A DNA stretch of 64,000 nt from Bacteroidota bacterium (GTDB lineage Bacteria; Bacteroidota; Bacteroidia; Palsa-948). The translations under genes were made by a program, and so were the position numbers. Where the stretch lies: assembly GCA_016213405.1 (NCBI GenBank), contig JACRAM010000006.1, positions 29,731-93,730 on the forward strand, in the 5' to 3' direction. The notes beneath the pieces were generated by a model, which saw only the letters and a list, made by a program, of their open reading frames with translations, made no database searches and was not told the DNA's origin. This document shows positions 1,629 through 55,504 of the stretch, piece after piece (position 1 is the stretch's first letter; every line of letters begins with the position of its first letter).

Positions 1629-1640
1629 CAGCAGTGCCCC

Positions 1641-1783
1641 ATCCCTAAAGGGAGAAAATGAAAGTCCCAAGCATCAAGCCCCAAGTACCAAGTCCAAAGA
1701 AGCAGCCGACATCGGCTTTCCCTTGGAATTTTGGACTTGGAATTTGGAATTTGGGACTTTATTTCCTTTAGGGATTTAGGGCA
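1641..1783. repeat. About 140-bp imperfect palindrome (MITE-like) with terminal inverted repeats ATCCCTAAAGG / CCTTTAGGGAT; interior made of CCAAGT/ACTTGG-type short repeats; central GCCGACATCGGC hairpin
   Basis: Read directly: atccctaaagggagaaaatgaaagtcccaag ... cttgggactttatttcctttagggat. Inner arms ccaagtaccaagtccaaag vs ctttcccttggaattttggacttgg. Lies between the mdh stop and the next gene. Confidence 0.6.
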
Positions 1784-6195: not shown

Positions 6196-6225
6196 AACAT
6201 GTAATAGGGGAGAAGGCAGATGGAA

Positions 6226-6252
6226 ATGACTAATGACTAATGACCAATGACT
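6226..6252. repeat. Heptanucleotide tandem repeat (ATGACTA x ~4) at the 3' end of the M1 peptidase gene
   Basis: atgactaatgactaatgaccaatgact read directly. The minus-strand stop codon TAG of the peptidase lies inside the array. Confidence 0.9.
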
Positions 6253-10585: not shown

Positions 10586-10626
10586 TAATCAGAGGAATAA
10601 ATGAAAGATAAAAATAGGGAAAAGAT

Positions 10627-11499
10627 TCAGATGGCTGTTAAAGACATATCGAGACTCTTTACGCTATGAGTAAGTGCACCAACGGAAATATAGTCAGCGC
10701 CACAGGAGGCGTACCTACGAATATTTTTTTCATTTATTCCTCCTGAAATTTCGGTTTCAAACTTTCCATTGATGAGATGAAGAACCTTTTTGATTTCAGA
10801 AATTGAAAAATTATCAAGAAGAATCCTGTCAACACTTCCGATGGATATTATTTCTTTTACTTCTTTCTGGTTTCTCGCTTCAATTTCAATCTGAAGTTTT
10901 AATTTTTTCTTTTTGAGATAAGCATTTGCAGATTCAACTGCTTGTTTAATTCCTCCCGCGAAATCAATATGGTTGTTCTTAATGAGAATCATATCATACA
11001 ATCCGAAGCGGTGGTTATATCCTCCGCCAATTCTTACCGCCCATTTTTCCAGATCGCGGAGAAGAGGTGTTGTTTTTCGTGTATCAAGAAGTTTTACTTT
11101 ATATGGTTTGCAAAGAGTAATAAGTTTATTTGTCTGCGTTGCAATTCCGCTCATGCGTTGCATGCAATTGAGAACAAGTCGTTCTGCAGTGAGAATGGAA
11201 CGTGCGCTGCCTTCTACAATAAAAGCAATATCTCCCTTTTTGACTTTTGTTCCATCTGGCAGAAAAAATTTTATCCGCAGATTTTTATCGAAAGAAAGAA
11301 AGATTTTTTCAGCAAGAGAAACTCCTGCAATGATTCCATCGTCTTTAATAATGAGTTTTGATTTTCCTTTAGCATTCTCCGGAATGCAAGAAAGAGTAGT
11401 ATGGTCACCATTACCGATATCTTCTTTCAGTGATGAGAAAACAAATTGATGTAAGTCAAAATTATTTGAGAGAAGAGAGAAGGATTGAAAATTATTCAT
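10627..11499 (-). CDS. nadC: Nicotinate-nucleotide pyrophosphorylase (carboxylating), quinolinate phosphoribosyltransferase
   Basis: 290 aa with EDIGNGDHTT near the N-terminus and a TIM-barrel QPRTase C-terminal half. Confidence 0.85.
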   Translation of the reverse strand: MNNFQSFSLLSNNFDLHQFVFSSLKEDIGNGDHTTLSCIPENAKGKSKLIIKDDGIIAGVSLAEKIFLSFDKNLRIKFFLPDGTKVKKGDIAFIVEGSARSILTAERLVLNCMQRMSGIATQTNKLITLCKPYKVKLLDTRKTTPLLRDLEKWAVRIGGGYNHRFGLYDMILIKNNHIDFAGGIKQAVESANAYLKKKKLKLQIEIEARNQKEVKEIISIGSVDRILLDNFSISEIKKVLHLINGKFETEISGGINEKNIRRYASCGADYISVGALTHSVKSLDMSLTAI

Positions 11500-11890
11500 C
11501 CTGAACTTCGAATCGGAATTGCTGAATAGTTAAACCTGCGCCTTCTTTTTTGAAAAGAAAATAGGAACGGAATTTTTTTCCTGCTGTTGTTTCATAAGTT
11601 CCGATGGCAAACTGGTCACCACTTTTGGAAGTGCCTTTATGCATTACCGCAAATGATTTGATGGGGTTCTTTGAAAAAAAGTCCTTAAGAATCAGTTCTG
11701 CCTGCGCTTTACTGTAAATATCTTCCTTATCAAGAATTTTGAGGTCAACATTGGCAGAGAAAAATTTAGCCACACTTGCAGCGTTTCCTGTTTTAACGGC
11801 AGCAGCAACATCATCGGAGATATCCAAAACCGGTTCAGTTGGTGGCTGAATCAGTGTGAAAAACATCAGTATGGAGAGAAGTGTGTGCAT
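11492..11890 (-). CDS. Hypothetical secreted protein (Bacteroidota-restricted small DUF)
   Basis: 132 aa, N-terminal hydrophobic signal-like segment, no recognised catalytic motif. Confidence 0.4.
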   Translation of the reverse strand: MHTLLSILMFFTLIQPPTEPVLDISDDVAAAVKTGNAASVAKFFSANVDLKILDKEDIYSKAQAELILKDFFSKNPIKSFAVMHKGTSKSGDQFAIGTYETTAGKKFRSYFLFKKEGAGLTIQQFRFEVQDE

Positions 11891-11987
11891 ATATTCGTTT
11901 TCAGATTAAATACAATTATCAAGCCAAAGTGAATGTTATTTTTGCCATGGAACAAATTTATACTTTTTTAGCCCCCGAAAACCAACC

Positions 11988-12446
11988 ATGAATATCGCTC
12001 TTATTTGTATGGGAAAAACATCTGAAAAGCACATTGCTGAAGGAATGAAACAGTATATAGAAAGGATTAACCATTATTGTAAATTCAGTTTGGTGGAGAT
12101 TGAAGCAGGAAGGGGCGATGAAACTCAAATCAGGAAAAAGGAATCAGAAGGTATGCTGAAAAGAGCAGGCGAGAAGGATGTATTGATTCTGCTTGATGAA
12201 AAAGGAAAAGAACTTTCTTCTGTTGAATTTGCGAAAACATTAATTCACCATCAGAATATTTCAACTAAGAATCTTGTCTTTGTGATTGGAGGAGCTTACG
12301 GATTTTCGGAAGAAGTTTATAGTCGGGCGAACATGAAAATCTCATTATCGAAAATGACTTTTCCGCATCAGTTAGTGAGAGTAATTTTCCTTGAACAATT
12401 ATACCGTGCGTTTACGATTCTGAAAGGAGAAAAATACCATCATTGA
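11988..12446 (+). CDS. rlmH: 23S rRNA (pseudouridine1915-N3)-methyltransferase RlmH (SPOUT family)
   Basis: 152 aa with the ...LILLDEKGKELSS...VFVIGGAYGFSEEV... pattern typical of YbeA/RlmH. Confidence 0.85.
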   Translation: MNIALICMGKTSEKHIAEGMKQYIERINHYCKFSLVEIEAGRGDETQIRKKESEGMLKRAGEKDVLILLDEKGKELSSVEFAKTLIHHQNISTKNLVFVIGGAYGFSEEVYSRANMKISLSKMTFPHQLVRVIFLEQLYRAFTILKGEKYHH

Positions 12447-13468
12447 TTAGCACGTGATAAATTCAACTGCCATTTCCATGCGCTCTCCATCATCTGTTCA
12501 ATATTGTATTTGGGCGCCCAGCCAAGAATCCGTTGTGCTTTAGAAGAATCAGAAAAAATGGATTCCACATCACCTTCTCTGCGTGGACCGATAATGTAAT
12601 TTAATTTTTTACCACTGACTTTTTCAAATGCGTTAATCGCTTCCATTACTGAAATGCCTTTCCCTGTCCCGAGATTAATAATTTCAAAATTGTTTTTTAC
12701 TTTTTCTTTCATTAAATATTTCAAGGCAAGTATATGCGCATTTGCAATGTCAGAAACGTGAACATAGTCGCGAATGCAGGAACCATCACGTGTGTTATAA
12801 TTATCACCATGGACAATAAAATGTTCAGCCATACCAATTGCTGTTTCAGTTATTGCAGGAACCAGGTTATCGCATTTTCTTCTGGGATGTTCACCAATCA
12901 ACCCCGAAGTATGCGCACCAACAGGATTAAAGTAACGTAAGGCAATTGAATGAATGTCAGGATTACTTTTTGAAAACTCAGCTATGATTTCTTCTCCCAT
13001 TTGCTTGGTGTGTCCATAGGGGGATTGAGCTTTCTGGAGCGGAGTGTCTTCGTTGACGGGAAGTGTATTTATATTTCCGTAAACGGAACATGAAGAAGAA
13101 AAAATAAAATTTTCAACTCCAAATTCTTTCAAACATGAAAGAACATTTTTTAAGGATTCATTATTATTATGATAATACAATTCAGGATTGGCAACTGACT
13201 CGGGAACTGATTTGAGGGCGGCAAAGTGAATCACTCCTTGTATGTCAGGATTTTCAGAAAAAATCTTTTTCGTGAAGCTTTTATTGCATAGATCAATTTC
13301 ATAATTACTGATTGAATTTCCTGTAATAGTTTTTATTCTATCGAATATGGTCGGAAACGAATTGAAAAAATTATCCGCAGAAAGGATATCCCATGAAGTA
13401 GTTTCAAGCATTTCTATAATAGTGTGTGAGCCAATATAACCTGCTCCGCCTGTGATAAGAATTTTCAT
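12440..13468 (-). CDS. galE: UDP-glucose 4-epimerase
   Basis: MKILITGGAGYIGSHT (GxxGxxG), a YxxxK catalytic region, 342 aa; first gene of the polysaccharide locus. Confidence 0.8.
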   Translation of the reverse strand: MKILITGGAGYIGSHTIIEMLETTSWDILSADNFFNSFPTIFDRIKTITGNSISNYEIDLCNKSFTKKIFSENPDIQGVIHFAALKSVPESVANPELYYHNNNESLKNVLSCLKEFGVENFIFSSSCSVYGNINTLPVNEDTPLQKAQSPYGHTKQMGEEIIAEFSKSNPDIHSIALRYFNPVGAHTSGLIGEHPRRKCDNLVPAITETAIGMAEHFIVHGDNYNTRDGSCIRDYVHVSDIANAHILALKYLMKEKVKNNFEIINLGTGKGISVMEAINAFEKVSGKKLNYIIGPRREGDVESIFSDSSKAQRILGWAPKYNIEQMMESAWKWQLNLSRANQ

Positions 13469-42784: not shown

Positions 42785-43768
42785 ATGAAAAAATTTACTA
42801 CTGCGGAGATAAAAGAAATTTACAACACACCATTACTGGATTTAGTTTTCAGGTCGGCAAGTGTGCACCGGATGTTTCATGACCCTTCTGAAGTTCAGGT
42901 GAGTTCCTTGCTATCCATTAAGACAGGCGGTTGTACGGAAGATTGTGGCTATTGTCCGCAGTCAGCGCGCTACCAAACGGATGTTGACGTTCACAAGATG
43001 ATTTCGGTTAATGATGTGATGGATGCAGCTTCAAATGCAAAATCAAGCGGTGCAACGCGCATGTGCCTCGGTGCTGCATGGAGAGAAGTTCGCGATAATT
43101 CTGATTTCGAAAGTGTTCTTCAAATGGTAAAAGGAATAAATGAAATGGGCATGGAAGTCTGTTGCACGCTCGGAATGCTCACAAAAGAGCAGGCGCAGAA
43201 ACTTGCGGATGCAGGACTTTACGCTTACAATCATAATCTGGATTCATCAGAGGATTTCTACAAAAAAATAATCACCACAAGAAAATATGATGACCGCCTA
43301 AACACAATTGAAAATGTGAGAAAGGCAAAGGTCACTGTTTGTTCCGGTGGGATTATCGGAATGGGGGAATCAGCAGATGACAGGATAGAAATGCTGTACA
43401 CGCTTTCCAATTTAAATCCACCGCCTGAATCTGTTCCCATCAACGCATTAGTTCCTGTGGAAGGAACTCCTCTTGAAAAACAAAAACTTGTTTCTATCTG
43501 GGAAATGCTTAGAATAATTGCGACCACCAGAATTGTGATGCCGAAATCAGTAGTGCGATTATCCGCTGGCAGAACGCAGATGTCCTTGGAAGGACAAGCG
43601 CTTTGTTTTTTGGCAGGAGCAAATTCGATTTTTGCAGGAGATAAATTACTGACAACCCCTAATCCGGATTTTAATGAGGATATGGAAATGTTCAAACTCT
43701 TCGGATTGAAATCCCGTGAAGCATTCAAATACGAAAAGGAAAAAATATCAGAAACAGTTTCTGCATGA
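42785..43768 (+). CDS. bioB: Biotin synthase (radical SAM)
   Basis: [11 protein letters not shown] (CxxxCxxC radical-SAM cluster) and the conserved BioB C-terminal region. Confidence 0.95.
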
Positions 43769-44478
43769 CGAAAATTTTACTAGTAGTTTTTTCTTTTATT
43801 GCAACCGCTGGGTTTTCCCAGTCAGGATATTACTTTCATCCCAAGGGCGATGGAGATAAATATTTTGTAGCGCTGGGTTACGGACAAGGAACCGCTCACT
43901 GGAGCTCACTTTTCAAAAGCACTGAGTTTTACGATAAAGATGGCAGAGTGATTAACACAGGCGATTTGGAATTCGCAGCAAACAGTCCGACCAAACAGTA
44001 TGATGTGCATGTGCTGGCGCCTATCAAGCACATTCGTTTGGGTTTAGGAATTTCATTTGAACATCATTATTTGTCCCAATTAAAAATTTATACAAAGAGC
44101 GGAGAAGAATATCTTTTGTTCGATGAAAGTTTACGCTTTGATAAGATTAATTTTATTGCAGAAGTTCCTTTTAACTATGAATCAAAGAAAAAATATTCCT
44201 TCAGCTGGAATTTTAATTGCGGATGGTTTGGCTATACCAATGTGAAGCGTTTTAATTTCATTGGAGAAAAACCTTTTCCTGTTGCGCTGCACGGTGCAAC
44301 CGGTATTACAGTGGATTACCAGTTGTATCCGCAGGTATATGTTTTCGCGTTTCCGAATGTTGAATATAAATACTACAGCAATTCGCATACTGAAGCGCCT
44401 GTTGATATCACTCACCGTGTTTTCTCAGCAAGTGTTATTGCAGGAATACGTGTTGACTTAGGAGCATTTAATTATTGA
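43765..44478 (+). CDS. Uncharacterized secreted, probable outer-membrane beta-barrel-like protein embedded in the bio operon
   Basis: Signal peptide [19 protein letters not shown], alternating beta-pattern, C-terminal ...DLGAFNY. ATGA overlaps with both bioB (stop) and bioF (start). Confidence 0.5.
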
Positions 44479-45665
44479 TTCCATTGAGCGAAGACTTTCT
44501 ACATCACCGTTTGAAGAGCAGAGAAGAACAAGATTTGCTCAGAAAACTTTCTCCCGAAAATAATCTCGTAGATTTTTCTTCCAATGATTATTTAGGATTT
44601 GCTCGCTCCGAAGAATTACAAAAATTTATTACCGCTGAACTCCAAACTCCAAACTCCAAACTCCGAACTGGTTCCACGGGCTCTCGTCTTCTTACCGGCA
44701 ATTCACAGTACGCAGAAGACTTAGAGAAGTTTATTGCTGAATATCATAAAGCGGAAGCAGGCTTGATTTTTAATTCCGGCTATAACGCTAACCTTGGTTT
44801 GATTTCTTCGGTGGCACAAAAAGGAGATGTTATTTTCTATGATGAACTTTCTCATGCTTCCATTTACGATGGAGTGCGTTTGTCAAAGGCAGAATCATTT
44901 CCGTTCAGACACAATGATATATCACATCTTGAAGAAAGATTGAAATTTTACAGAAGCAATCATGACAGCAATTCAAATTGCTTTGTGATTGTTGAAAGTG
45001 TTTATTCTATGGATGGAGATTTTTCTCCTTTGAAAGAAATTACTTCTCTTTGTGAAGAGTATAATGCAAACTTAATTGTTGATGAAGCGCACGCCACCGG
45101 AATCTTTGGACCGAAAGGTGAGGGAAGAGTTGTTGAATTGAATCTCCATGAAAAATTTTTTGCACGTGTTCATACGTTCGGCAAAGCGCTTGGATGCCAC
45201 GGAGCGATTGTTTTAGGAAGTGAATACCTGCGTAATTACCTTATCAATTATGCCCGCTCATTTATCTATACAACTGCACTACCGGTTCATAGTTTAGTGG
45301 TAATAAAATCGTCTTATAATTATCTTTTAAATAGTTATGATAGAATGCTTAAAACCAATGATTTGATAAAATCATTCAAATCGTTAGTAAAGGATAAAAG
45401 TGTTACAGGATTTTTAGAAAGTTCAAGCCCGATTCAGTCATTGGTTGTTGAAGGAAACGAAGAAGTAAAAAGGATTTCTTTGCTTGTTCGGAAAGACGGA
45501 TTTGATGTTCGACCGATTCTCAGTCCAACAGTTCCCAAAGGAAAAGAAAGAATCAGAATTTGTTTGCATACTTTCAATACGCTGGAAGAAATAAAAGGAC
45601 TGCTTTCTTCCTTGAAAAAAAATAGTAATCTTGCCGTTGTAAAGCAAGAGCTAATTTCTGAATGA
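44475..45665 (+). CDS. bioF: 8-amino-7-oxononanoate synthase
   Basis: Class-II aminotransferase fold with ...DEAHATG... and the PLP lysine region (...TFGKALG...). It contains an in-frame AACTCCA x4 heptamer repeat. Confidence 0.85.
   Translation: MIPLSEDFLHHRLKSREEQDLLRKLSPENNLVDFSSNDYLGFARSEELQKFITAELQTPNSKLRTGSTGSRLLTGNSQYAEDLEKFIAEYHKAEAGLIFNSGYNANLGLISSVAQKGDVIFYDELSHASIYDGVRLSKAESFPFRHNDISHLEERLKFYRSNHDSNSNCFVIVESVYSMDGDFSPLKEITSLCEEYNANLIVDEAHATGIFGPKGEGRVVELNLHEKFFARVHTFGKALGCHGAIVLGSEYLRNYLINYARSFIYTTALPVHSLVVIKSSYNYLLNSYDRMLKTNDLIKSFKSLVKDKSVTGFLESSSPIQSLVVEGNEEVKRISLLVRKDGFDVRPILSPTVPKGKERIRICLHTFNTLEEIKGLLSSLKKNSNLAVVKQELISE
44638..44671. repeat. Heptanucleotide tandem repeat (AACTCCA x ~4.7) in frame within bioF
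   Basis: aactccaaactccaaactccaaactccgaactgg; encodes ELQTPNSKLRTG. Confidence 0.9.
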
Positions 45666-46273
45666 GAAAATTTTTTGTCACAGGAATCGGAACGGATGTC
45701 GGTAAAACTGTCACTTCAGCAATTCTTGTTGAAGCGTTGAAAGCAGATTACTGGAAACCCGTTCAGGCGGGAACTTACTACGCAACAGATTCTGAAAATG
45801 TGAAGAAATGGATCAGCAACGAAACAAGTGTCATTCATCCCGAAGCATACAAACTACGCGAACATAAATCTCCTCATGAAGCTTCTGAGATGGAAGGAGT
45901 CACAGTTGATTTTGATAAAATAGTTTTACCTCAAACAAATAACACATTGGTGATTGAAGGCGCAGGTGGAGTGATGGTGCCTGTGAATAAACAATATTAC
46001 ATTATTGATTTGATAAAAAAATTTGACACAGAAACAATTGTGGTAATTCAGAATTATCTTGGAAGTATCAATCATTCCCTCCTTACAATAGACGCCCTCA
46101 AACAGAGAGGAATAAAAATCATCGGACTTGTGTTTAATGGCTCCCCTCACGAACCTTCCAGACAAATCATTGAAAGCTATAGCGGATTGAAAACTATTTC
46201 ATGGATTGTTAATGAGCCGACAATTAACAAAGAAGTGATTTTGAAGTACGCGAAAGATTTTCAGAACATCTGA
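45662..46273 (+). CDS. bioD: Dethiobiotin synthetase
   Basis: MRKFFVTGIGTDVGKTVTSAIL (P-loop), 203 aa. Confidence 0.9.
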   Translation: MRKFFVTGIGTDVGKTVTSAILVEALKADYWKPVQAGTYYATDSENVKKWISNETSVIHPEAYKLREHKSPHEASEMEGVTVDFDKIVLPQTNNTLVIEGAGGVMVPVNKQYYIIDLIKKFDTETIVVIQNYLGSINHSLLTIDALKQRGIKIIGLVFNGSPHEPSRQIIESYSGLKTISWIVNEPTINKEVILKYAKDFQNI

Positions 46274-46309
46274 CTTCTCTCCTGATTTGTATATTCGCTT
46301 TTCCATTCT

Positions 46310-47590
46310 ATGTCACTCTCATCGCGCGATAAAAACATCATCTGGCATCCATACTCGCAGCATCAGCTCAATCCTGATTCTATTGGAATTGTAAAAGCTA
46401 AAGGTGCTTATGTGTATGATCAGAAAGGGAAAAAATACATTGACGCGCTTTCATCCTGGTGGACTTCCATTCACGGACACACTCATCCTTACATCGCAAA
46501 AAAAGTTTTTACCCAATTAAAAAAACTAGAGCATGTCATCTTTGCCGGATTCACTCACGAACCCGCTGTTGAATTGGCTGAACGACTTTTGAAAAAACTT
46601 CCTAAGAATCAAAAAAGAATTTTCTTTTCTGATAATGGTTCTACTGCCGTTGAAGTTGCATTGAAGATGAGTTTTCAATACTGGTATAACAAGGGAACAC
46701 CAAAAACAAAAGTGATTGCGTTCGAGAACGCCTATCACGGAGATACATTCGGAGCGATGTCTGTGAGTGAACGTGGAGCATTCACAAAGCCGTTTGATTT
46801 TGGATTGTTTGATGTGGCTTTTATTGATGCGCCTATTAAAGGAAAAGAAACAGAATCTATTCAACAACTCACATCAGCCATCAACCATCAACCATCAACC
46901 ATTGCAGCATTTATCTTTGAGCCAATTGTGCAGGGAGTTGCCGGAATGGTAATTCACGAAGCCAAAGCACTCAGCGAAATGATTAGGATTTGTAAGGCGA
47001 ATAATATTTTCACAATTGCGGATGAAGTGTTTACGGGATTTGGCAGAACAGGAAAGTTTTTTGCATCAGATTATCTTTCTGAAAAACCTGATATGGTTTG
47101 TCTTTCAAAAGGATTAACGGGCGGAACGATGGCGATGGGTGTTACTTCCTGTACTGCAGAAATCTTCAATGCCTTTCTTTCCGAAGACAGGATGAAAACT
47201 TTTTTTCACGGACATTCATTCACGGCAAACCCTGTTGCTTGTTCAGCTTCTCTCGCAAGTTTGGATTTGATTGAAAAGAAATCTACTAAGGAAAGTATAA
47301 AGAGAATTACAAAGCGACATGAGAAATTTTCAAAAGCACTTATTGGAAATAAGTCAATAAAGGAAATAAGGAAAATTGGTGTTGTTCTTGCGATAGAACT
47401 TAAAACATCTGGCGAAACGTCTTACTTTAATTCCATTCGTGATAAGGCAACTAAGTTTTTTCTTGGCAAAGGAATTTTACTTCGCCCGCTTGGAAATGTG
47501 ATTTATCTTGTTCCGCCTTATTGCATATCCGATAAAGATTTGGATTACATTTACAATTCAATAGAAGAATTCATAGGAATATTAAAATGA
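46310..47590 (+). CDS. bioA: Adenosylmethionine-8-amino-7-oxononanoate aminotransferase
   Basis: Class-III aminotransferase with the [18 protein letters not shown] region. The N-terminal WHPYSQ... is typical of BioA. It carries an in-frame CATCAAC x4 repeat. Confidence 0.9.
46872..46905. repeat. Heptanucleotide tandem repeat (CATCAAC x ~4.8) in frame within bioA
   Basis: catcagccatcaaccatcaaccatcaaccattgc; encodes [12 protein letters not shown]. Confidence 0.9.
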
Positions 47591-47668
47591 TGTTGTTCGA
47601 CCCTGAAAGGGTCGGATATGAATAGCAGCGTTAATTCTATTCATGTTCGACCCCGAAGGGGTCGAATA
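47590..47668. repeat. Tandem pair of GAA-loop hairpins (GTTCGACCCYGAARGGGTCGRA) flanking a small central palindrome, bioA-accC spacer
   Basis: gttcgaccctgaaagggtcgga ... gaatagcagcgttaattctattc ... gttcgaccccgaaggggtcgaa. Confidence 0.8.
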
Positions 47669-47687
47669 CATACGATAAAAATAACTT

Positions 47688-49178
47688 GTGATAATAAAAA
47701 AGGTTCTTATTGCTAACCGCGGAGAGATTGCTCTTCGCATTATGCGTTCGTGCAGGGAAATGGGCATTTCTACCGTTGCGGTTTTTTCTGAAGCGGACAG
47801 GAATGCTCCGTTTGTTCGCTATGCGGATGAAGCGGTTTGTATCGGTCCGCCTCCTTCTTCACAATCTTATCTCAACGGAAAAAAGATTATTGAAGTATGT
47901 AAACAGTTAAAAGTTGACGCTGTTCATCCCGGCTATGGTTTTCTTTCCGAGAATGCTGAGTTTGCCCGTTCAGTTGATAAAGCCGGAATTATTTTCATCG
48001 GACCTCCTGCTGAAGCAATGGAAATGATGGGCGACAAACTTTCTGCAAAAGCTACAGCGAAGAAACATAACGTTCCAATGGTGCCCGGAACTGAAGGAGC
48101 AATAGATGATATTAAAGAAGCAAAAAAAGTCGCTAAAGAAATTGGATTTCCAATTCTCATCAAAGCAAGCGCTGGAGGTGGTGGAAAAGGAATGCGCATA
48201 GTGGAAAAAGAAAATGACCTGGAAGAAGAAGTCAAGCGTGCATCCAGCGAAGCGAAATCTGCTTTTGGAGATGGATCAGTGTTCATTGAAAAATATGTTG
48301 AGAAGCCAAGGCATGTGGAAATTCAAATTCTCGCGGATAAGCACGGCAATGTGGTTTATCTTTTTGAGCGTGAGTGTTCAGTTCAGCGTAGACATCAAAA
48401 GGTTGTGGAGGAAGCGCCATCAACCGTTCTCACTCCTGAAATCAGAAAGAAGATGGGCGAGTGTGCTGTGAGTTTGTCAAAAGCCTGCGGATATGTTGGA
48501 GCGGGAACGGTTGAGTTCCTTGTTGACGCAAAAAAGAATTTCTATTTTCTTGAAGTAAATACGCGCCTACAGGTTGAACACCCGGTCACAGAAATGATAA
48601 CAGGAACTGATCTGGTGAAAGAACAAATCAAAGTTGCTCAAGGAGAAAAACTTTCTTTCAAACAGGAGGATTTAAAAATCAATGGACACTCCATTGAGGT
48701 GCGGGTGTATGCTGAGGACCCGGCAAATAATTTTCTTCCTGATATAGGCAGGCTGGTTTCGTATAAAATTCCTCAAGGAGTTGGAGTGCGTGTAGATGAT
48801 GGCTTTGAAGAAGGAATGGATATTCCGATTTATTATGACCCGATGATTGCCAAACTGATTTCTTACGGAAAGAATAGAGAAGAGGCAATTGCAAGAATGA
48901 TTCGCGCGATTGATGAATATAAAATCATTGGCGTTGAAACTACTTTGCCGTTCTGCAAGTTTGTTCTTAAGCATGAAGCATTCACCTCTGGAAATTTCGA
49001 CACGCATTTTGTAAGCAAATATTTTATTCCTAAAAAATTGTTTCCTGAATCAGAAGACGAGGCATTTGTTGCTGCACTTGTTTCTTCCCGACTTATGAAA
49101 ACTGCAAAGTCAAACATTTCAAATAATCATTCAGCTTCTGTTTCTAAATGGAAAAAGAACCGAATTACTGAAGAATAA
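47688..49178 (+). CDS. accC: Acetyl-CoA carboxylase biotin carboxylase subunit (GTG start)
   Basis: [27 protein letters not shown]..., ATP-grasp core, 496 aa, no BCCP domain. Confidence 0.85.
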
Positions 49179-49292
49179 TACATCATTCTTTTCAGATTTT
49201 GCATTTGTTGGTAATTTCCCTACCTTTGAAGTAACATTTCAGGCATTCGTTCGTTAAATTAGTGGCATAGTTCTTGAAATGATTCAGATCAA

Positions 49293-49934
49293 ATGACAAA
49301 ATTCGCTTACATAGTTCGGGTAATTTCAGCAATGATTCTTTTACTCTTGTTCGTTTCAGACGGAGTTTTCGCTCAGCTAAAAAATATTTCACAGAATGAT
49401 ATGAATATTCCTTTTCAGAATAATATCATGCTGACTGCATTTCCTTATCATGGTGAAACTCTTCCTACGCTTACTCTTAAAGAGTTTCCTGTTATAGCAG
49501 TTCGCACTTTCAAAAGTGAAAAAGATAAACTTGCTTATTTTAAACTGAAGCGCGATGTGCGAAAAGCATACCCTTACGCTGTGCTTGCATCCATTAAGCT
49601 AAAAGAGTATGACGCGATTCTTGTCAACGTTCCTGAAAATAAGCGCGCACCTTTTTTGAAAAAAACAGAGAAAGAACTTAAAGAGCAGTTTGAAGCCGAT
49701 TTAAAAAATCTTACCATGAACCAGGGAAGAATTCTGATCCGTCTGATCAATCGTGAAACAGGAATGACAACTTATAAAGTGATAAAAGATTATCGCGGTG
49801 GATTCTCCGCATTTATGTGGCAGTCGCTCGGGCTTTTATGGGGAAATAATCTAAAGTGGACATACGATCCTTCCAAAGGAGAAGACATGCTGATTGAAGG
49901 AATCATTCAGGAAATTCAGGACAAAGAAGTTTGA
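49293..49934 (+). CDS. Hypothetical secreted protein (Bacteroidota DUF)
   Basis: Signal peptide MTKFAYIVRVISAMILLLLFVSDGVFAQ; 213 aa; no motif recognised. Confidence 0.4.
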   Translation: MTKFAYIVRVISAMILLLLFVSDGVFAQLKNISQNDMNIPFQNNIMLTAFPYHGETLPTLTLKEFPVIAVRTFKSEKDKLAYFKLKRDVRKAYPYAVLASIKLKEYDAILVNVPENKRAPFLKKTEKELKEQFEADLKNLTMNQGRILIRLINRETGMTTYKVIKDYRGGFSAFMWQSLGLLWGNNLKWTYDPSKGEDMLIEGIIQEIQDKEV

Positions 49935-50824
49935 TTCTTTCTGAATCTTTCAGCAACTACCAACTCTTTACTTCCGGCAGAATACTGATAAAACCCTTTT
50001 CCGGATTTAACTCCAAAATTTCCTTCAGCAACCATATTTACTAGCAGAGGACAAGGAGCATATTTAAGAGAGCTGAATCCATCTTCAAGAACTTTCATGA
50101 TTGAAAGACAAACATCCAGCCCGATGAAATCTGCAAGCTGGAGCGGACCCATCGGATGAGCCATTCCGAGTTTCATTACTGTATCAATTTCTTCAACGCC
50201 TGAAACGCCTTCGTGCAGGGCATAAATTGCTTCGTTGATCATGGGCATTAAAATTCTGTTTGCAACAAATCCGGGCGCGTCATTTACTTCAACAGGAATT
50301 TTTTTCAGCTTGCGGGAAAGTTCCATTACAATTTTCGTTACCTCATCTGAAGTAGCTTTCCCGCGAATCACTTCCACTAATTTCATTAATGGCACAGGAT
50401 TCATAAAATGCATTCCGATTACTTTGTCAGCACGTTTGGTTACAGATGAGATTTTCGTAATGGAGATAGAAGAAGTATTGCTGGCAAGAATTGCATCGGG
50501 CTTGCAGATGGAATCCAATTGTTTGAAGATATTCAGTTTTAATTCTGAATTTTCTGTTGCAGCTTCTACAACCAAATCTGCATTCTTTGCTCCGTCTTCC
50601 AGTTTTATAAAAGTGGAAATATTTTTTAATGTATTCTGCTTATCCGCTTCTGTAATGCTTCCTTTCGCAACTTGCCTGTCAATATTTTTTGTGATGGTTG
50701 CAATTGCTTTATCCAGAAATTCCTGCTTGATGTCAACCAGCGAAACTTTATATCCGAACTGCGCAAAAGTGTGGGCAATTCCGTTGCCCATAGTTCCGCA
50801 TCCGATAACTGATATTTGCTGCAT
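49916..50824 (-). CDS. hbd: 3-hydroxybutyryl-CoA / 3-hydroxyacyl-CoA dehydrogenase
   Basis: MQQISVIGCGTMGNGIAHTFAQFGYKVSLVD (NAD Rossmann) and the C-terminal 3HCDH domain; 302 aa. Confidence 0.85.
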   Translation of the reverse strand: MQQISVIGCGTMGNGIAHTFAQFGYKVSLVDIKQEFLDKAIATITKNIDRQVAKGSITEADKQNTLKNISTFIKLEDGAKNADLVVEAATENSELKLNIFKQLDSICKPDAILASNTSSISITKISSVTKRADKVIGMHFMNPVPLMKLVEVIRGKATSDEVTKIVMELSRKLKKIPVEVNDAPGFVANRILMPMINEAIYALHEGVSGVEEIDTVMKLGMAHPMGPLQLADFIGLDVCLSIMKVLEDGFSSLKYAPCPLLVNMVAEGNFGVKSGKGFYQYSAGSKELVVAERFRKNQTSLS

Positions 50825-50840
50825 TGCTTATCCTTTTTTA

Positions 50841-51488
50841 TCAAACAAATTCATCAGGATTTATTATACGATAGACGATTGCCGCAACCGTGCTGCCTGT
50901 AAATGGTCCGGCAATGTAAATCCATAGAAATTGCTCAGGATGACAAGGGCATGAGCCGAAAATTGTGTCCACGAGAATAGGTCCCATGCCAACTGCGGGA
51001 TTAAATGCTCCGCCAGATATCGGTCCCGCAATAATTGCTCCTGCTAAAACAGTAAATCCAATTGCAAGACCATAATAACTATTGCCTGCAGTTTTCTTTG
51101 AAGTGGCTACAGACAGCACAACCAAAGCAAGCGCAAAGGTGAAAACCATTTCAACAGCAAGCGGCTTGAGGATGTTGATTTCAGTTGCCGGTTTCGGTCC
51201 GCCAATGCTTCTTCCCCAAATGAGAAAGAAAAAATAAGCTGCGGCAAACGCAGCAATAAACTGAACCAGCATATAGAACAAAGAATCTTTCGGGCTTATT
51301 TTTCCTCTTAGCCAAACGGCAAATGTTACCGCAGGATTATAATGAGCGCCAGAAATATGCCCGCCCATATACACCATCACCATCAGTGTAGCGCCAATGC
51401 CAAGGGGGGCAAGAAAGTTGCCGCCAGAAAGACATACAGCAAGAACAAGAAAAAATGTTCCGATGAATTCAACAATATATTTTCTCAT
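50841..51488 (-). CDS. aqpZ: MIP-family channel (aquaporin Z-like)
   Basis: Two NPA boxes (HYNPAVTFA and FNPAVGMG); 215 aa. Confidence 0.85.
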   Translation of the reverse strand: MRKYIVEFIGTFFLVLAVCLSGGNFLAPLGIGATLMVMVYMGGHISGAHYNPAVTFAVWLRGKISPKDSLFYMLVQFIAAFAAAYFFFLIWGRSIGGPKPATEINILKPLAVEMVFTFALALVVLSVATSKKTAGNSYYGLAIGFTVLAGAIIAGPISGGAFNPAVGMGPILVDTIFGSCPCHPEQFLWIYIAGPFTGSTVAAIVYRIINPDEFV

Positions 51489-51579
51489 GATATATATTTA
51501 AAAGTTTGTGACAAAGGTAAATTTTTTACTTTCGCCTCTCTTAAAAGAATTTCACAATCAAATCCTAATACATATTTCT

Positions 51580-52053
51580 ATGCCAATCACCATCGGACAG
51601 AAAGCGCCCAACTTCAATCTTCCTGATCAGGAGAAGAATATGGTTTCATTGGAGGGATTAAAAGGAAAAAATGTTGTTCTTCTTTTCTTTCCTGCCGCGT
51701 TTACGGGCGTGTGTACAAAAGAATTGTGCCAGACACGCGATGAGCTTTCTTTTTATAATGGAATGAATGCAAAAGTTTATGGTGTGTCTGTTGACATGCC
51801 ATTTTCTCTTGGAAAATTCAAGGAGATGAATGGAATTACTTTTCCGCTTCTTTCTGATTTTAATAAGGAAGCTATCACCGCTTACGATGTGTGCAATGAA
51901 AATTTTTCTGTTGGATTGAAAGGCGTTGCCAAGCGCGCTTCGTTTGTGATTGATAAAGAAGGCACCGTTGTTTTTGCAGAAGTTCTCCCGAACCCTGGCG
52001 ACTACCCGAACTTTGACGGAATCAAGAAAGCGCTGGAAACAGCTAAGCAGTAA
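51580..52053 (+). CDS. Peroxiredoxin (AhpC/TSA family, BCP/PrxQ-like)
   Basis: FPAAFTGVCTKELC (P-x3-T-x2-C peroxidatic Cys with a resolving Cys 5 residues later). The track ORF starts 24 codons upstream at a weaker Met. Confidence 0.75.
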   Translation: MPITIGQKAPNFNLPDQEKNMVSLEGLKGKNVVLLFFPAAFTGVCTKELCQTRDELSFYNGMNAKVYGVSVDMPFSLGKFKEMNGITFPLLSDFNKEAITAYDVCNENFSVGLKGVAKRASFVIDKEGTVVFAEVLPNPGDYPNFDGIKKALETAKQ

Positions 52054-52753
52054 TTATCGCCAGCCCCATTCCTGCAAGAATCGTAACAAGTTTCATGATG
52101 TGAAAGCGGTGCTGTTCGCTGCTTTCAAACAGGATGGTGGTGGATACATGAAGAAAAATTCCTACCACCACTGCCATCAGGTAATTTGAATAGTTGGTAA
52201 TCAAATGCATATTTCCTTCCAGAAGATTTCCGGTGAGCGCTCCGAGCGGGGTCATGAGCGCGAAAACAAATAACCAGAAAAAAGCAATGCCCTTTTTTTG
52301 TCCTGATTGAATGAGCATGCTCATCAGTGCGATGGCAATAGGCACGTTGTGAAGCATGATTCCGGTTGCGAGAGATTTTTTTGTCTCGGTAAATTCACCA
52401 GCCAGCGGCATTCCTTCAATAAAAGAGTGAACAGAAAGAGCAAGCATCACAGCGATGGGGAAAGTTTTTTCTTCGTGCTGGTGAACGTGAATGTGCCCGT
52501 GCTCAATGCCCTCAGAAAAATATTCAATGAGGATTTGAAGAAGAAAGCCAGCGAGAATAAAAATTCCCGTCTTGACATTTGCATTTGAATATATTTCAGG
52601 AATAAGGTGAAGAACGGCAATGGCAAGAAGATAGGCTCCGCTGAAGGCAAGAATCAGTTTCAGTGTTTTGCCTCCGATCTGAAAAAATAAAACGCTGCTT
52701 CCGCTGATGATAACTGTAATGAAGAGGAGTATGTAAATCAATTCGCCTGACAT
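52043..52753 (-). CDS. ZIP-family divalent metal transporter (ZupT-like)
   Basis: 8-TM protein with a His-rich loop (HGHIHVHQHEE) and HSFIEGM in TM4/5. Confidence 0.7.
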   Translation of the reverse strand: MSGELIYILLFITVIISGSSVLFFQIGGKTLKLILAFSGAYLLAIAVLHLIPEIYSNANVKTGIFILAGFLLQILIEYFSEGIEHGHIHVHQHEEKTFPIAVMLALSVHSFIEGMPLAGEFTETKKSLATGIMLHNVPIAIALMSMLIQSGQKKGIAFFWLFVFALMTPLGALTGNLLEGNMHLITNYSNYLMAVVVGIFLHVSTTILFESSEQHRFHIMKLVTILAGMGLAIITA

Positions 52754-53481
52754 TATTTCTTTTTCCCTATGAGGATTAATCTTTCGGATTTTGTTTCATC
52801 AAATTTATTTAAGCTGTAATCGCCAAACAAATGTAGCACCTCCAGTCCGTTTTCAGCGAAAAAGTTTTCAAGGTCTCTTTGAGTATATGCTTTAACCTGT
52901 TCCCGGAATGAAAAACCTTTTCCGTTATCAGTAACAGAAATTTCTTTTACGATGGAATTATCCTCAATGAATCGTTTGATTTCAAACGCAACCTCTTTGC
53001 ATTCCATTTTCTCGTTCGGAATAAGTTCTTTTATTTCTTTATAGGAGTTCATGAAGTCCAGTATAAGCCATCCGTCTTTTTTCAGAGCGCTGGTCATTGA
53101 TTTCACCGCCTTGTTGTTTTCAGCATCTCTTTCAAAATATCCGAAGCTGGTGAATAAACTCAGCACCGCGTTGTAATAATTTATTCTGAAAAAATTTCTT
53201 TGGTCGTGAATATAAAAGGTAAGGTTTTCCTTTTCCGATTTTTTAGCTTCGGCAATATTTTTTTCGCTGATGTCAATGCCCGTAACATCAAATTCTTTTT
53301 CGGCAAGATAAATGGAATGCCTTCCCCGCCCGCAGCCGCAATCAAGAATTTTGTTTTTGGGAGAAAGCTTTAGCAAGGATACCAGATTGCCGAGAAACAA
53401 CTTGGCTTCATCCGCATTGCGGTGCTTGTAAAGCATGCAATAATATTCCGAGCCGAACCAGTCCTGAATCCAGCCGGTCAT
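52753..53481 (-). CDS. Class I SAM-dependent methyltransferase
   Basis: ILDCGCGRGRHS motif I, DVTGIDIS motif II. Confidence 0.75.
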   Translation of the reverse strand: MTGWIQDWFGSEYYCMLYKHRNADEAKLFLGNLVSLLKLSPKNKILDCGCGRGRHSIYLAEKEFDVTGIDISEKNIAEAKKSEKENLTFYIHDQRNFFRINYYNAVLSLFTSFGYFERDAENNKAVKSMTSALKKDGWLILDFMNSYKEIKELIPNEKMECKEVAFEIKRFIEDNSIVKEISVTDNGKGFSFREQVKAYTQRDLENFFAENGLEVLHLFGDYSLNKFDETKSERLILIGKKK

Positions 53482-53520
53482 TGAGAAAGTATTATCAGTA
53501 AATTTGAAAAATGCATTTGC

Positions 53521-53832
53521 TTGAAAACTAACTTAAAGATAAAGTTCTTCATTTTTTTTGTTTCGGCAACATTATTTTCAGTTCAATGCTATTCGCAGCG
53601 CGCCAGCGGGGAGAGCCCGATCATATCAGGAGCAAAAAACATTGTTAAAGCTGCAGCGCCTGTAGTGAAAGACGGTTACAGAAGAATTGAAAAAAGATCG
53701 GGAGCCGTGCGCGCTATTAATGGCGCTGTTTCACAGGCAAAGCCGATGATAGACAAAGCTATTCCTATGGTGCAAAAAGGTTTTATCATCGGCAAGAAAA
53801 TATATAAGATTCTTAAAAAGATTTTAAGGTGA
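53521..53832 (+). CDS. Small secreted protein with cationic amphipathic C-terminus
   Basis: Signal peptide then ...KGFIIGKKIYKILKKILR; 103 aa. Its stop overlaps the downstream GTG start. Confidence 0.35.
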   Translation: MKTNLKIKFFIFFVSATLFSVQCYSQRASGESPIISGAKNIVKAAAPVVKDGYRRIEKRSGAVRAINGAVSQAKPMIDKAIPMVQKGFIIGKKIYKILKKILR

Positions 53833-55037
53833 CCAACCGCCAGTTGTTTTTCAACCATCTGGCGCAGACCTCCGCTGCGCCTCCCGCTCTTGAAATTAAA
53901 AGCGCGAAGGGAATTTATCTCTATGGCGCTGACGGAAAAAAATACATGGATTTGATTGCTGGAATTTCTGTTAGTAATGTGGGGCATGGAAATCCGAAAG
54001 TGCTGAGCGCGATAAAAAAGCAGTTAGACAAGCACAGTTACCTGATGGTTTACGGAGAATATACTGTTGCCCCGCAGGTGGAATACGCAAATCTTCTGTT
54101 CAACTATCTGCCAAAGAAATTGAACAATATCTATTTCGTTAATTCAGGAAGCGAAGCGGTGGAAGGCGCGCTTAAACTTGCCAAGCGGTTTTCGGGCAGA
54201 ACAGAAATCATCGCTTTTAAAAATGCGTATCACGGAAGCACACACGGAGCGCTGAGCGTGATGGGAAATGAAACGATGAAGCAGGCATTCCGCCCATTGC
54301 TGCCTGATGTGCGCTTTATCGAATTCAATAATGAAAAACATCTTGAACAAATTACAAACAAGACTGCATGTGTAATTGTGGAGCCGATTCAGGGAGAAGC
54401 AGGGGTAATAAGTCCCAAGTCCCAAGTCCCAAGTCCTAAGTCTCAAGGCAAAAACTTTCTTCAACTGCTAAGAGAAAGATGCGATGAAACCGAAACGCTT
54501 TTAATCTTTGATGAGATACAAACCGGAATGGGCAGAACAGGAACTTTATTTGCGTTTGAGAAATACAAAGTGGTGCCTGATATTCTTTGTCTGGCGAAAG
54601 CGTTTGGCGGAGGAATGCCGCTTGGCGCGTTCATCTCTTCGAAAGAAATCATGTCAACGCTTTCTCATCATCCGGCACTGGGGCACATCACTACTTTTGG
54701 CGGTCATCCGCTGAGTTGTGTGGCAGGAATGGAGACGTTGAAAATTACGAATGACGAATTACGAATGGCGAATTCAAAATCAAAGCTCTTCAAAAAACTT
54801 TTAGTTCATCCGCGCATTAAAGAAGTGAGGGGAGAGGGCTTGCTTCTCGCGGTTCAGTTTGGGAGCGAAGAGGAAAACAAAAAAATAATTTCACGGTGTA
54901 TGGAGAACGGTGTGATAACCGATTGGTTTCTTTTCTGCCCTTCTGCCATGCGCATTGCGCCTCCGCTTATTATTACAGAAAAAGAAATAAGGAAAGCGTG
55001 TGAGGTGATTTTGAAAAGTATTGAAGAAGTAATTTAG
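53829..55037 (+). CDS. Class-III (acetylornithine/ArgD-like) PLP aminotransferase, GTG start
   Basis: SGSEAVEGALKLAKR..., DEIQTGMGRTG, LAKAFGGGMPLGA (PLP-Lys region). It carries two in-frame heptamer-repeat insertions. Confidence 0.8.
   Translation: MTNRQLFFNHLAQTSAAPPALEIKSAKGIYLYGADGKKYMDLIAGISVSNVGHGNPKVLSAIKKQLDKHSYLMVYGEYTVAPQVEYANLLFNYLPKKLNNIYFVNSGSEAVEGALKLAKRFSGRTEIIAFKNAYHGSTHGALSVMGNETMKQAFRPLLPDVRFIEFNNEKHLEQITNKTACVIVEPIQGEAGVISPKSQVPSPKSQGKNFLQLLRERCDETETLLIFDEIQTGMGRTGTLFAFEKYKVVPDILCLAKAFGGGMPLGAFISSKEIMSTLSHHPALGHITTFGGHPLSCVAGMETLKITNDELRMANSKSKLFKKLLVHPRIKEVRGEGLLLAVQFGSEEENKKIISRCMENGVITDWFLFCPSAMRIAPPLIITEKEIRKACEVILKSIEEVI
54411..54448. repeat. Heptanucleotide tandem repeat (AGTCCCA x ~5.4) in frame within the aminotransferase
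   Basis: agtcccaagtcccaagtcccaagtcctaagtctcaagg; encodes SPKSQVPSPKSQ right after the conserved IQGEAGVI. Confidence 0.9.
54747..54774. repeat. Heptanucleotide tandem repeat (ACGAATK x 4) in frame within the aminotransferase
   Basis: acgaatgacgaattacgaatggcgaatt; encodes TNDELRMAN. Confidence 0.9.
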
Positions 55038-55423
55038 TAAACTCCTGTAGTAAGCATCACTAGCGTGCAGGCTTCGAGGGATTCAATTCCTGCATCACGA
55101 ATTATTTTTGCAAACTCAGGATTTTCAGCGCCCGGATTAAAGATAACGCGCCTGGGTTTTAAGGAAAGAATATAATCGTAATAAACGGGCTGGTTCTTTG
55201 CTCCCACATACAGCGAAACAGAATCAACCCCTTCAATCTTCGGAAAACCTGTTTGAATTATCACACTATCAAACCCGAGGGCACCATTTGCAATGCCTGA
55301 AATTCTTCCTTGCTTTAAACCAATGGCAATTACATTATGGTTGTGCTCCCGCAGTTTTCTCACCGCACGGTTTGAATACCGCTCACGATTTTCTGATGCG
55401 CCTATTACTACGGTTGTCTTCAT
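55034..55423 (-). CDS. CoA-binding domain protein (YccU-like)
   Basis: MKTTVVIGASENRERYSNRAVRKL... Rossmann-like CoA-binding fold; 129 aa. Confidence 0.8.
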   Translation of the reverse strand: MKTTVVIGASENRERYSNRAVRKLREHNHNVIAIGLKQGRISGIANGALGFDSVIIQTGFPKIEGVDSVSLYVGAKNQPVYYDYILSLKPRRVIFNPGAENPEFAKIIRDAGIESLEACTLVMLTTGVY

Positions 55424-55504
55424 CTGCGAATACGAATATGTACGAATCTACTAATTTTTCTTTGTTTTTATTCGTTTATTCGTATTGATTCGTATTCGTA
55501 GATG
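55421..55504. repeat. Inverted repeat built from CGAATAC-type heptamers around a T-rich centre (intergenic hairpin)
   Basis: catctgcgaatacgaatatgtacgaatctac ... cgtttattcgtattgattcgtattcgtagatg are near reverse complements. It spans from the CoA-binding gene start to the MFS stop. Confidence 0.8.

Follow-up and report, generated by a model that had tools for sequence, protein, structure and literature searches.

Heptanucleotide repeats have been known in bacteria since 1990, when the short tandemly repeated repetitive (STRR) sequences of cyanobacteria were reportedly described by Mazel et al. They are usually treated as intergenic, and their origin and dynamics are unexplained. Here we describe two heptanucleotide arrays that are located within the coding sequences of bioF and bioA, two genes for conserved enzymes of biotin biosynthesis. 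The genes are found in a 64,000-nucleotide stretch of DNA from a Bacteroidota bacterium (GenBank assembly GCA_016213405.1, contig JACRAM010000006.1, positions 29,731 to 93,730), hereafter called the window. Comparison with orthologs suggests that both arrays are old microsatellites that homogenise themselves while their units drift between lineages.

Heptanucleotides form the commonest class of long simple sequence repeats in most prokaryote genomes, and polymerase slippage has been proposed as their source (Mrazek, Guo and Shah 2007, as summarised in PMC4679880 and PMC4692102). Repeats whose unit is not a multiple of three are mostly intergenic and are under-represented in open reading frames (ORFs) (PMC4692102). 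The arrays described here share with this class the tandem 7-nt unit, the favoured period of 7, the many unit sequences, the scattering over the genome and the proposed slippage. They differ in that at least four arrays are located mid-gene in conserved enzymes, persist at orthologous codons across families, and evolve in concert at a fixed length. Heptamers are also known to form a hairpin, as with the 7-bp repeats between cyanobacterial hupS and hupL (PMC2670836).

The initial annotation of this DNA held that heptamer tandem repeats are not a described feature of Bacteroidota. This is incorrect, because MacGregor (2015, PMC4679880) reported direct repeats of TAACTGA in Beggiatoaceae, Cyanobacteria and five Bacteroidetes, along with other heptamers in the last group. 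The TAACTGA repeats have 2-43 copies, and some overlap stop codons or lie within ORFs, where they give the peptide LSVISYQ (PMC4679880). Like the arrays in the window, they are heptamer direct repeats in Bacteroidetes that encode a 7-residue periodic peptide when translated. However, they have one favoured unit and are mostly located just 5' of start codons, the coding cases being at termini or in hypothetical proteins, and neither persistence at orthologous sites nor unit turnover is described in that work. In the literature searched, we found no description of same-codon arrays in core enzymes across families, of concerted evolution at fixed length, or of in-frame mini-hairpins within arrays.

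The biotin genes of the window are arranged in the order bioB, a 237-residue ORF, bioF, bioD, bioA and accC. The two host genes and their arrays are as follows.

44475 to 45665, plus strand: bioF-like gene (8-amino-7-oxononanoate synthase family), whose TTG start overlaps the upstream stop codon; best model TIGR00858.
44638 to 44669, plus strand: bioF heptamer array AACTCCA x4.6, encoding E55-T65 (ELQTPNSKLRT), identified with Tandem Repeats Finder (TRF); sequence AACTCCAAACTCCAAACTCCAAACTCCGAACT.
46310 to 47590, plus strand: bioA gene (adenosylmethionine-8-amino-7-oxononanoate transaminase), TIGR00508.
46872 to 46902, plus strand: bioA heptamer array CATCAAC x4.4, encoding T188-I198, identified with TRF; sequence CATCAGCCATCAACCATCAACCATCAACCAT.

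The BioA protein of the window is 100% identical to an NCBI protein from 'MAG: Bacteroidetes bacterium' (MAG, metagenome-assembled genome) and passes the NCBIfam equivalog model TIGR00508 with 545 bits (cutoff 405). An exact look-up of the same BioA sequence gave no match. For the BioF ORF the best NCBIfam model is that of bioF (TIGR00858), with a score of 345 bits that falls below the cutoff of 426. The same ORF matches solved 8-amino-7-oxononanoate synthases in the Protein Data Bank (PDB) with E values down to 3e-60, and its gene is located between bioB and bioD.

The bioF array is composed of the units AACTCCA AACTCCA AACTCCA AACTCCG AACT, and the bioA array of CATCAGC CATCAAC CATCAAC CATCAAC CAT. 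TRF reports a period of 7 for both, with 4.6 copies and 96% matches in bioF and 4.4 copies and 95% matches in bioA, and the exact repeat runs extend over 27 and 25 nt, respectively. Both arrays thus have the head-to-tail 7-nt unit, the three or more copies and the high identity that characterise a heptanucleotide microsatellite. They occupy codons 55-65 of 396 in BioF and codons 188-198 of 426 in BioA. Sequence, TRF and ORF analysis together confirm the initial annotation in that these are genuine 7-nt tandem arrays, in frame within intact coding sequence, and by simple arithmetic it was also right that a slip of one unit would cause a frameshift. Its statement that the total array lengths are multiples of three is a miscount. 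By TRF the arrays measure 32 nt (bioF) and 31 nt (bioA), or 34 nt by the coordinates first reported, and none of these numbers is divisible by three. What preserves the frame is the full gene and not the array length.

Period 7 is the only over-represented repeat period in the window. A stringent scan of lags 4 to 14 (windows of 21 positions with at least 18 matches) yields five segments at lag 7 and none at any other lag, compared with none in 20 dinucleotide-preserving shuffles. At a looser threshold, nine overlapping period-7 segments resolve into eight separate arrays, and the bioF and bioA arrays are not isolated but are accompanied by six others in the same 64 kb. We also considered selection for protein-level heptads as the cause of the repeats. 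This candidate was ruled out, since the DNA itself repeats exactly, synonymous positions included, and all three reading frames of the repeat are used.

The age of the arrays was assessed from the syntenic loci of relatives, which were recovered through exact protein look-ups (L081, L083, L084 and L086-L091, where L marks a numbered locus). A profile scan of a genome collection with the BioA alignment provided controls, the relatives among the matches listed being at most 61% identical. In codon-level DNA alignments, the BioF site carries AACTCCA in the window, AACTTTA/AACTTGA in L083, and AACTTGT/AACTTGA in L084, whereas the array is decayed in L081 and L089 and missing from L087. The BioA site carries ATCAACC in the window, L081 and L083, ATCTCAA in L086, and 5.4 copies of ATCTCAG in L088, a locus with 52% GC whose BioA protein has 65% identity. 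The ATCTCAA array is also present at the BioA site of two Mucilaginibacter MAGs (L004 and L006), where BioA is just 57-61% identical. Overall, arrays are found at the same codons in orthologs spanning 57-87% identity, which is at odds with the recent origin that had been offered as one possibility. The initial annotation had also reasoned that its view of the repeats would fail if orthologs carried the same peptides, and L081 and L083 do carry TSAINHQQSTISS and a 13-residue peptide.

The window and L083 share an identical 24-nt core of the bioA array, even though their synonymous third positions agree in only 53% of cases, and identity at third codon positions ranges from 0.53 to 0.55 between the window and its closest relatives. 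With synonymous sites near saturation, neutral decay would have erased perfect repeats, yet the arrays are nearly perfect in many lineages, so that either homogenisation continues, as in concerted evolution, or the arrays are repeatedly re-created.

Homologous proteins carry the signature of this process. Dozens of 120 BioA homologs have 7-residue-periodic peptides at the array site, and the two copies of the period change together, as seen in KSQISSLKSQVSS, KSHISRHKSHISS, KFQISNLKFQISS, KSKVQSLKSKVAA and ISTISHHPSTIAS. Equivalent peptides in BioF homologs include ELETLNFKLET, ELSTFNFQLST and EISNLKSHISNL. Residues at positions i and i+7 match in 189 of 630 cases for BioA, compared with 128 +/- 8 after permutation (maximum 154 in 2000 permutations), and in 61 of 208 cases for BioF, compared with 31 +/- 4. 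The permutation swaps the second half of the site between proteins and ignores phylogeny, so the significance of these values is approximate. Offsets of 5, 6 and 8 give far fewer matches than offset 7 in both proteins. One part of each unit is constant: in BioA it is the ATC codon, which places Ile at i and i+7, and in BioF it is CTx and ACT, which specify Leu and Thr. From these comparisons, the bioF and bioA arrays appear to be old, self-homogenising microsatellites whose units drift between lineages.

The same alignments bear on the claim of the initial annotation that the arrays are insertions adding low-complexity peptides. The BioA segment from QL to FIFEP has the same length in all eight aligned loci (window, L081, L083, L084 and L086-L089), and L090 and L091 carry variants with seven additional residues. 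Relative to Escherichia coli BioA, the site of the window has three more residues locally, and the E. coli protein has seven more residues just upstream; array-free Bacteroidota homologs are two residues shorter than the window. For BioF, the site is one to four residues longer than in solved structures. Among relatives it is equal to the window in L081 and L083, two residues longer in L084, L087 and L089, two shorter in L086, and nine shorter in L088. The segment from SNDYLG to GSTGSR has 36-38 residues in proteins with an array and 32-35 in array-free homologs. The net gain over array-free homologs is therefore 2-3 codons in bioA and about 1-6 in bioF. With equal BioA segments in close relatives and so little added length in either protein, the arrays are not net insertions of low-complexity peptide.

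Predicted structures place both arrays at tolerant positions, each comprising the C-terminus of a helix and a loop. The AlphaFold (AF2) model of BioF has a mean predicted local distance difference test (pLDDT) score of 89.9. In this model, the array residues 55-65 correspond to the last two residues of the helix at 46-56 and the coil that follows. This coil reaches into the least confident block of the protein (residues 61-70, pLDDT 53), directly before the conserved GSTGSR. The BioA model, built from 44 similar sequences, is poor overall (mean pLDDT 64) and was used only at residues 171-200, where the array site scores 86-95. Residues 188-198 form the end of the helix at 180-193, the loop at 194-197, and the first residue of the strand at 198-203. 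In these models, both array sites are positions where the sequence is free provided that a few residues recur.

Heptamer arrays are not restricted to this locus. Other Bacteroidota loci, 1.35 Mb in all, contain 80 arrays of period 7, compared with 0-8 for periods 5, 8, 10, 11 and 13. Period-7 arrays lie within ORFs of at least 150 residues in 27 of 28 cases in close relatives and in 17 of 80 cases in the 1.35 Mb, a contrast that is inflated by the repeated counting of orthologous arrays and by crude ORF calling. A metagenome scan for (AAGTYYC)x4 identified at least 120 contigs with 21-69% GC, many of which carry an inverted partner. In-frame heptamer arrays are thus not confined to the lineage of the window.

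Several of these loci merit brief description. In-frame (AAGTYYC)n arrays or inverted pairs are present in L161, L096, L164, L144, L135 and L117, which range from 35 to 60% GC. Their putative hosts, assigned from motifs only, are DapF (two arrays), PriA, a DnaE-like polymerase (two hairpins), a glycosyltransferase, a prepilin peptidase and LpxB. Period-7 arrays are dense in L051 (Chitinophagaceae bacterium 26-R-25), L073 and L076, which have 17, 8 and 8 arrays per ~21 kb, mostly outside ORFs. A second CATCAAC array, with the same unit as bioA, is located at 3634-3664 of L083 in an unrelated TPR/SpoIIE gene. We also considered whether AAGTYYC is a special unit served by sequence-specific machinery. 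Counts in viral contigs are 11 for (AAGTYYC)x4 and 9 for each of two scrambled units, and the idea was rejected because the scrambled units are about as common.

We lean towards an explanation in which the bioF and bioA repeats are microsatellites produced by slippage or template switching in a 7-nt register and filtered by selection. Such misalignment would be general in this lineage and detectable across Bacteroidota, and it would copy neighbouring units onto each other. During a transient misalignment by one unit, bases would be copied from adjacent units, which could homogenise the array without changing its length. Copies within an array would thereby be kept nearly identical, while the unit sequence would be free to drift between lineages. 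Selection would purge gains or losses of one or two units, which cause a frameshift, as well as units that give an in-frame stop codon. Arrays would survive only where the protein tolerates any 7-residue-periodic peptide, such as at the ends of helices and in loops on the surface, and where a residue that the protein requires can be supplied at both i and i+7, such as the Ile encoded by ATC in BioA. They would then be neutral or slightly costly passengers, and neither switches nor functional peptides. Copying from the opposite strand could yield inverted units, giving rise to intergenic hairpins with heptamer arms and to mini-hairpins inside the arrays of relatives. We infer both the mechanism and the neutrality, and have not observed slippage itself, since no unit-number polymorphism was seen and the BioA segment is almost invariant in length.

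Further period-7 arrays and hairpins of the window are as follows.

1640 to 1775, plus strand: composite intergenic hairpin of ~135 nt, with outer stem CCCTAAAGGG/CCTTTAGGG and central mini-hairpin AGCCGAcaTCGGCT.
6225 to 6252, strand unassigned: AATGACT/AATGACC x4 array overlapping the M1 peptidase ORF at its stop codon, identified with TRF.
7918 to 7947, minus strand: AAGAGGC array (plus-strand unit; coding-strand unit CCTCTTG), lying within the predicted first 17 codons of an M1-family peptidase ORF (6237-7967).
54410 to 54447, plus strand: AAGTCCC x5.4 array in a class-III aminotransferase ORF (53829-55037), encoding SPKSQVPSPKSQ, identified with TRF.
54743 to 54774, plus strand: AATTACG/AATGACG x4.4 array in the same aminotransferase, peptide ITNDELRMAN, identified with TRF.
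55421 to 55504, strand unassigned: intergenic inverted repeat of ACGAAT-type units, with 35-nt arms that are 80% complementary.

The first of the two aminotransferase arrays, at 54410-54447, differs from those in the biotin genes. It is a clean insertion of 10 residues after the conserved EPIQGEAGV and is absent from L083, L086 and all PDB homologs. The unit at this site, GT CCC AAG, matches the ancestral local sequence CTT CCT AAA or TTA CCG CAA, which indicates local amplification and not the import of foreign DNA. The second site holds 4.6 copies of AAGGCAG in L086, and in aminotransferase homologs both sites hold many different inserts of 5-60 residues. The inverted repeat at 55421-55504, about 700 nt downstream, belongs to the same unit family as the second coding array.

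The composite hairpin at 1640-1775 is flanked by a malate dehydrogenase gene and an aspartyl-protease-like ORF. Its arms consist of an AAGTCCC-type array (1662-1697) and an inverted TTGGAAT-type array (1723-1754), and the predicted RNA fold has an energy of -71 kcal/mol (z = -7.0 relative to shuffles). The comparison with STRR sequences made in the initial annotation is apt here, as this element is an STRR-like hairpin with heptamer arms. The 7-bp unit and the hairpin-forming intergenic arrays of STRRs are thus found at 1640-1775 but not in bioF or bioA, whose arrays are coding, and the host belongs to Bacteroidota and is not a heterocystous cyanobacterium. AGTCCCC, which we take to be an STRR consensus, resembles the AAGTCCC of the window, and TGACCAA, presumably another, occurs at 6243-6249. 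None of the units AACTCCA, CATCAAC, AAGTCCC, AATGACK and AAGAGGC agrees with what we take to be the STRR1-3 consensus. With homologous copies at two non-orthologous sites in another species, the composite hairpin represents a dispersed STRR-like or REP-like family.

Strain-level comparisons were drawn from protein clusters at 90% identity, of which two are informative: L241 with the window, and L091 with L242. The pairs L081/L082 and L084/L085 are each 100% identical over 17-18 kb and are thus uninformative about polymorphism. L241 is a contig from the same species, with 98.35% identity to positions 48645-55009 of the window. Immediately after the aminotransferase gene it carries ~6.4 kb (6370-12837) that are absent from the window at ~55010-55050. 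This segment codes for a Por-secretion-tail protein, a GerE-type regulator, a response regulator and a histidine kinase, and identity beyond it is 92%.

Several results weigh against slippage and template switching as the source of the arrays. The only array that can be compared between strains, at 54410-54447 and thus in neither bioF nor bioA, is identical base for base in the window and L241, and no whole-unit length polymorphism is seen. At the second aminotransferase site, the window carries (ACGAATK)x4 where L241 carries (AAAGTCA)x4. The site lies within a divergent tract of ~300 nt (window 54560-54880, L241 5920-6240) that holds 51 of the 99 mismatches between the two strains, and this wholesale swap resembles a discrete replacement and not slippage. 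From the divergence pattern, it looks like an array allele exchanged by recombination through a short import. The inserts at the first aminotransferase site measure +27, +30 and +33 nt, none of which is a multiple of 7. The length of the BioA site is also nearly invariant in 120 listed homologs, of which ~105 were parsed. Rare variants have 5, 7 or 12 additional residues and never a frameshift, in a homolog sample that is biased towards intact proteins. The composite hairpin has two homologous copies at non-orthologous sites in L083 (250-350 and 1690-1800), a hint of mobility.

A further difficulty arises from the second strain comparison. L091 and L242 belong to another species and share 94.5% identity. 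The one gap between them is an exact 21-nt sequence, ACCTGCCTGCCGGACAGGCAG, located at 5177-5197 of L091 between two units of the bioA array. This looks more like a discrete insertion than like slippage. Together with the next two bases, ACCTGCCTGCCGGACAGGCAG forms a perfect 9-bp hairpin, and it adds seven residues in frame. The insertion is present in three members of the 90% protein cluster and absent from one, and three other BioA homologs likewise have seven additional residues at the array site. The same palindrome, CCTGCCTGCCGGCAGGCAGG, is found in two unrelated contigs as well (L088 at 18647 and L154 at 11287), as a hairpin resembling a terminator that is followed in one of them by a run of T residues. 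This distribution suggests a widely shared mini-hairpin motif. The L091 palindrome is a very small hairpin of the same size class as the small dispersed repeats (SDR, 21-27 nt) that Elhai et al. are said to have described in Nostoc in 2008.

These observations would be accommodated if the arrays derived from selfish or mobile micro-elements, comprising STRR-like palindromes with heptamer arms and 21-nt mini-hairpins, that are spread by dedicated machinery or by horizontal transfer. Such elements would colonise genes in frame, and the bioF and bioA arrays would be one-armed remnants or landing pads. We consider this unlikely, although several lines of evidence are in its favour. The composite hairpin has copies at non-orthologous sites in another species, the 21-nt palindrome separates bioA units in L091 and is missing from L242, and CCTGCCTGCCGGCAGGCAGG recurs in unrelated contigs. 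Insert peptides of aminotransferase homologs (SHPGPKGR...SPLGVGGKG) can be read, from the peptides alone, as a translated CCCTAAAGGG/CCCTTTAGGG palindrome. In-frame (AAGTYYC)n arrays and inverted pairs occur in varied putative proteins on contigs of 21-69% GC, and the units CATCAAC, TTGGAAT and ATCTCAA recur at unrelated loci. However, in the window neither the bioF nor the bioA array has an inverted partner or terminal repeats, and both add hardly any length. The 21-nt insertion in L091 shows no visible target-site duplication, and no transposase or reverse transcriptase is present among the 20 of roughly 60 window ORFs that were scanned. In addition, the units at each site are related to the local ancestral sequence, and viral contigs hold scrambled heptamers about as often as AAGTYYC.

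The nearest parallel for such DNA within metabolic genes is provided by Rickettsia palindromic elements (RPEs), which are intragenic MITEs (miniature transposable elements with inverted repeats; reviewed in PMC10969869). In both systems, metabolic genes unrelated to one another tolerate repeat DNA of a non-coding type in frame, at places that the fold of the protein allows, and the hairpin-bearing inserts in the bioA and aminotransferase genes of relatives are a close analogue. RPEs are palindromes of ~150 bp that encode a conserved peptide, whereas the bioF and bioA arrays are direct repeats of ~30 nt that add almost no length. A palindrome is found in the bioA gene of L091, in the aminotransferase gene of L081 and at 1640-1775 of the window, but not in the bioF and bioA arrays. 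Dispersed copies, or presence in one genome and absence from another, are seen for the composite hairpin, the 21-nt palindrome and the inserts at the first aminotransferase site. Nearly every member of the clade carries the bioF and bioA arrays.

A broader proposal is that heptamer arrays, their hairpin derivatives and the 21-nt mini-palindromes represent a single cross-phylum class of self-propagating micro-elements, which we regard as doubtful. If it were true, template switching in a 7-nt register or an activity encoded by the elements would rewrite arrays in place, and colonisation in frame would extend even to the catalytic cores of housekeeping enzymes. The class would be a Bacteroidota-centred counterpart of RPEs with turnover at the level of single units, and it would also explain the STRRs of cyanobacteria.

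Phase variation would give the arrays a regulatory role, in which reversible gain or loss of one unit switches biotin synthesis on and off. The precedent is neuO of E. coli K1, whose 5' region holds 3-53 copies of an AAGACTC repeat and which is OFF in 66% of genomes (PMC13001214). Both systems have a 7-nt coding repeat, frame-dependent translation and a 7-residue periodic peptide, a change of one unit would frameshift bioF and bioA alike, and nearly perfect arrays kept over long times are what selection for slippability would be expected to produce. The neuO repeat varies between and within strains, whereas the window arrays have only 4-5 copies, are located mid-gene in housekeeping enzymes and are invariant in length among orthologs, with no OFF alleles seen. 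All eight loci aligned at the DNA level are in frame with an equal BioA segment, the ~105 parsed homologs are almost constant in length (again in a sample biased towards intact proteins), and the sole array comparable between strains is identical. The orthologs examined show no alternation of ON and OFF frames, and the arrays are not long 5' arrays of a surface or accessory gene. Furthermore, arrays are degenerate or absent in the close relatives L081, L087 and L089. Thus, a contingency function for these arrays is very improbable.

We assign a similarly low probability to the idea that the repeats persist because they themselves have a function, whether as a linker or heptad peptide or as an RNA or DNA signal such as a regulator site or translational pause. 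The presence of an array at the same site across deep divergence and the identity of the bioA array DNA in the window and L083, where synonymous sites are just 53% identical, could reflect such constraint, and the TAACTGA repeats have been proposed to bind a regulator (MacGregor, PMC4679880). Nevertheless, the unit and its peptide differ among orthologs (KSQISNL, INHQPST and ISDLRSQ, each with a 7-residue period), and only the structurally required Ile, Leu and Thr are retained. Some relatives, and every distant homolog, also have a decayed array or none, and scans of the whole window for Rfam families and tRNAs gave no matches.

An assembly or sequencing artefact is barely conceivable: although the source is a MAG, in which short repeats may be assembled wrongly, the arrays lie in intact ORFs, the aminotransferase array is base-identical in the independent same-species contig L241, and the possibility is excluded because arrays at the same codons are carried by many independent assemblies (NCBI, JGI, ENA and Logan).

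If slippage or template switching under selection does account for the bioF and bioA arrays, the reading frame of a conserved enzyme serves as a built-in filter through which only length-neutral outcomes survive. As a result, homogenisation would become visible as the co-variation of copies at fixed positions over hundreds of orthologs. Such genes offer a natural system in which repeat turnover can be measured apart from length change, and with which one can address why the period is 7 and how far a protein fold tolerates non-adaptive repeat DNA. On a practical level, peptides encoded by repeats are a source of lineage-specific noise in alignments, and arrays of this type are possible hot spots for frameshifts in MAG annotation.

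Two features of the biotin operon lie outside the arrays. The 237-residue ORF at 43765-44478 is located between bioB and bioF, is translationally coupled to both, and keeps its position in most relatives. It has no significant match in Pfam, NCBIfam or the PDB, and its similarity to alpha/beta hydrolases is non-significant. The ORF may code for an undescribed pimeloyl-acyl carrier protein (ACP) methyl ester esterase of the biotin pathway. Downstream, the region from the bioA stop codon to the accC start codon (47596-47666) contains the mini-hairpins GACCCTGAAAGGGTC and CGACCCCGAAGGGGTCG, which together form a larger inverted repeat.

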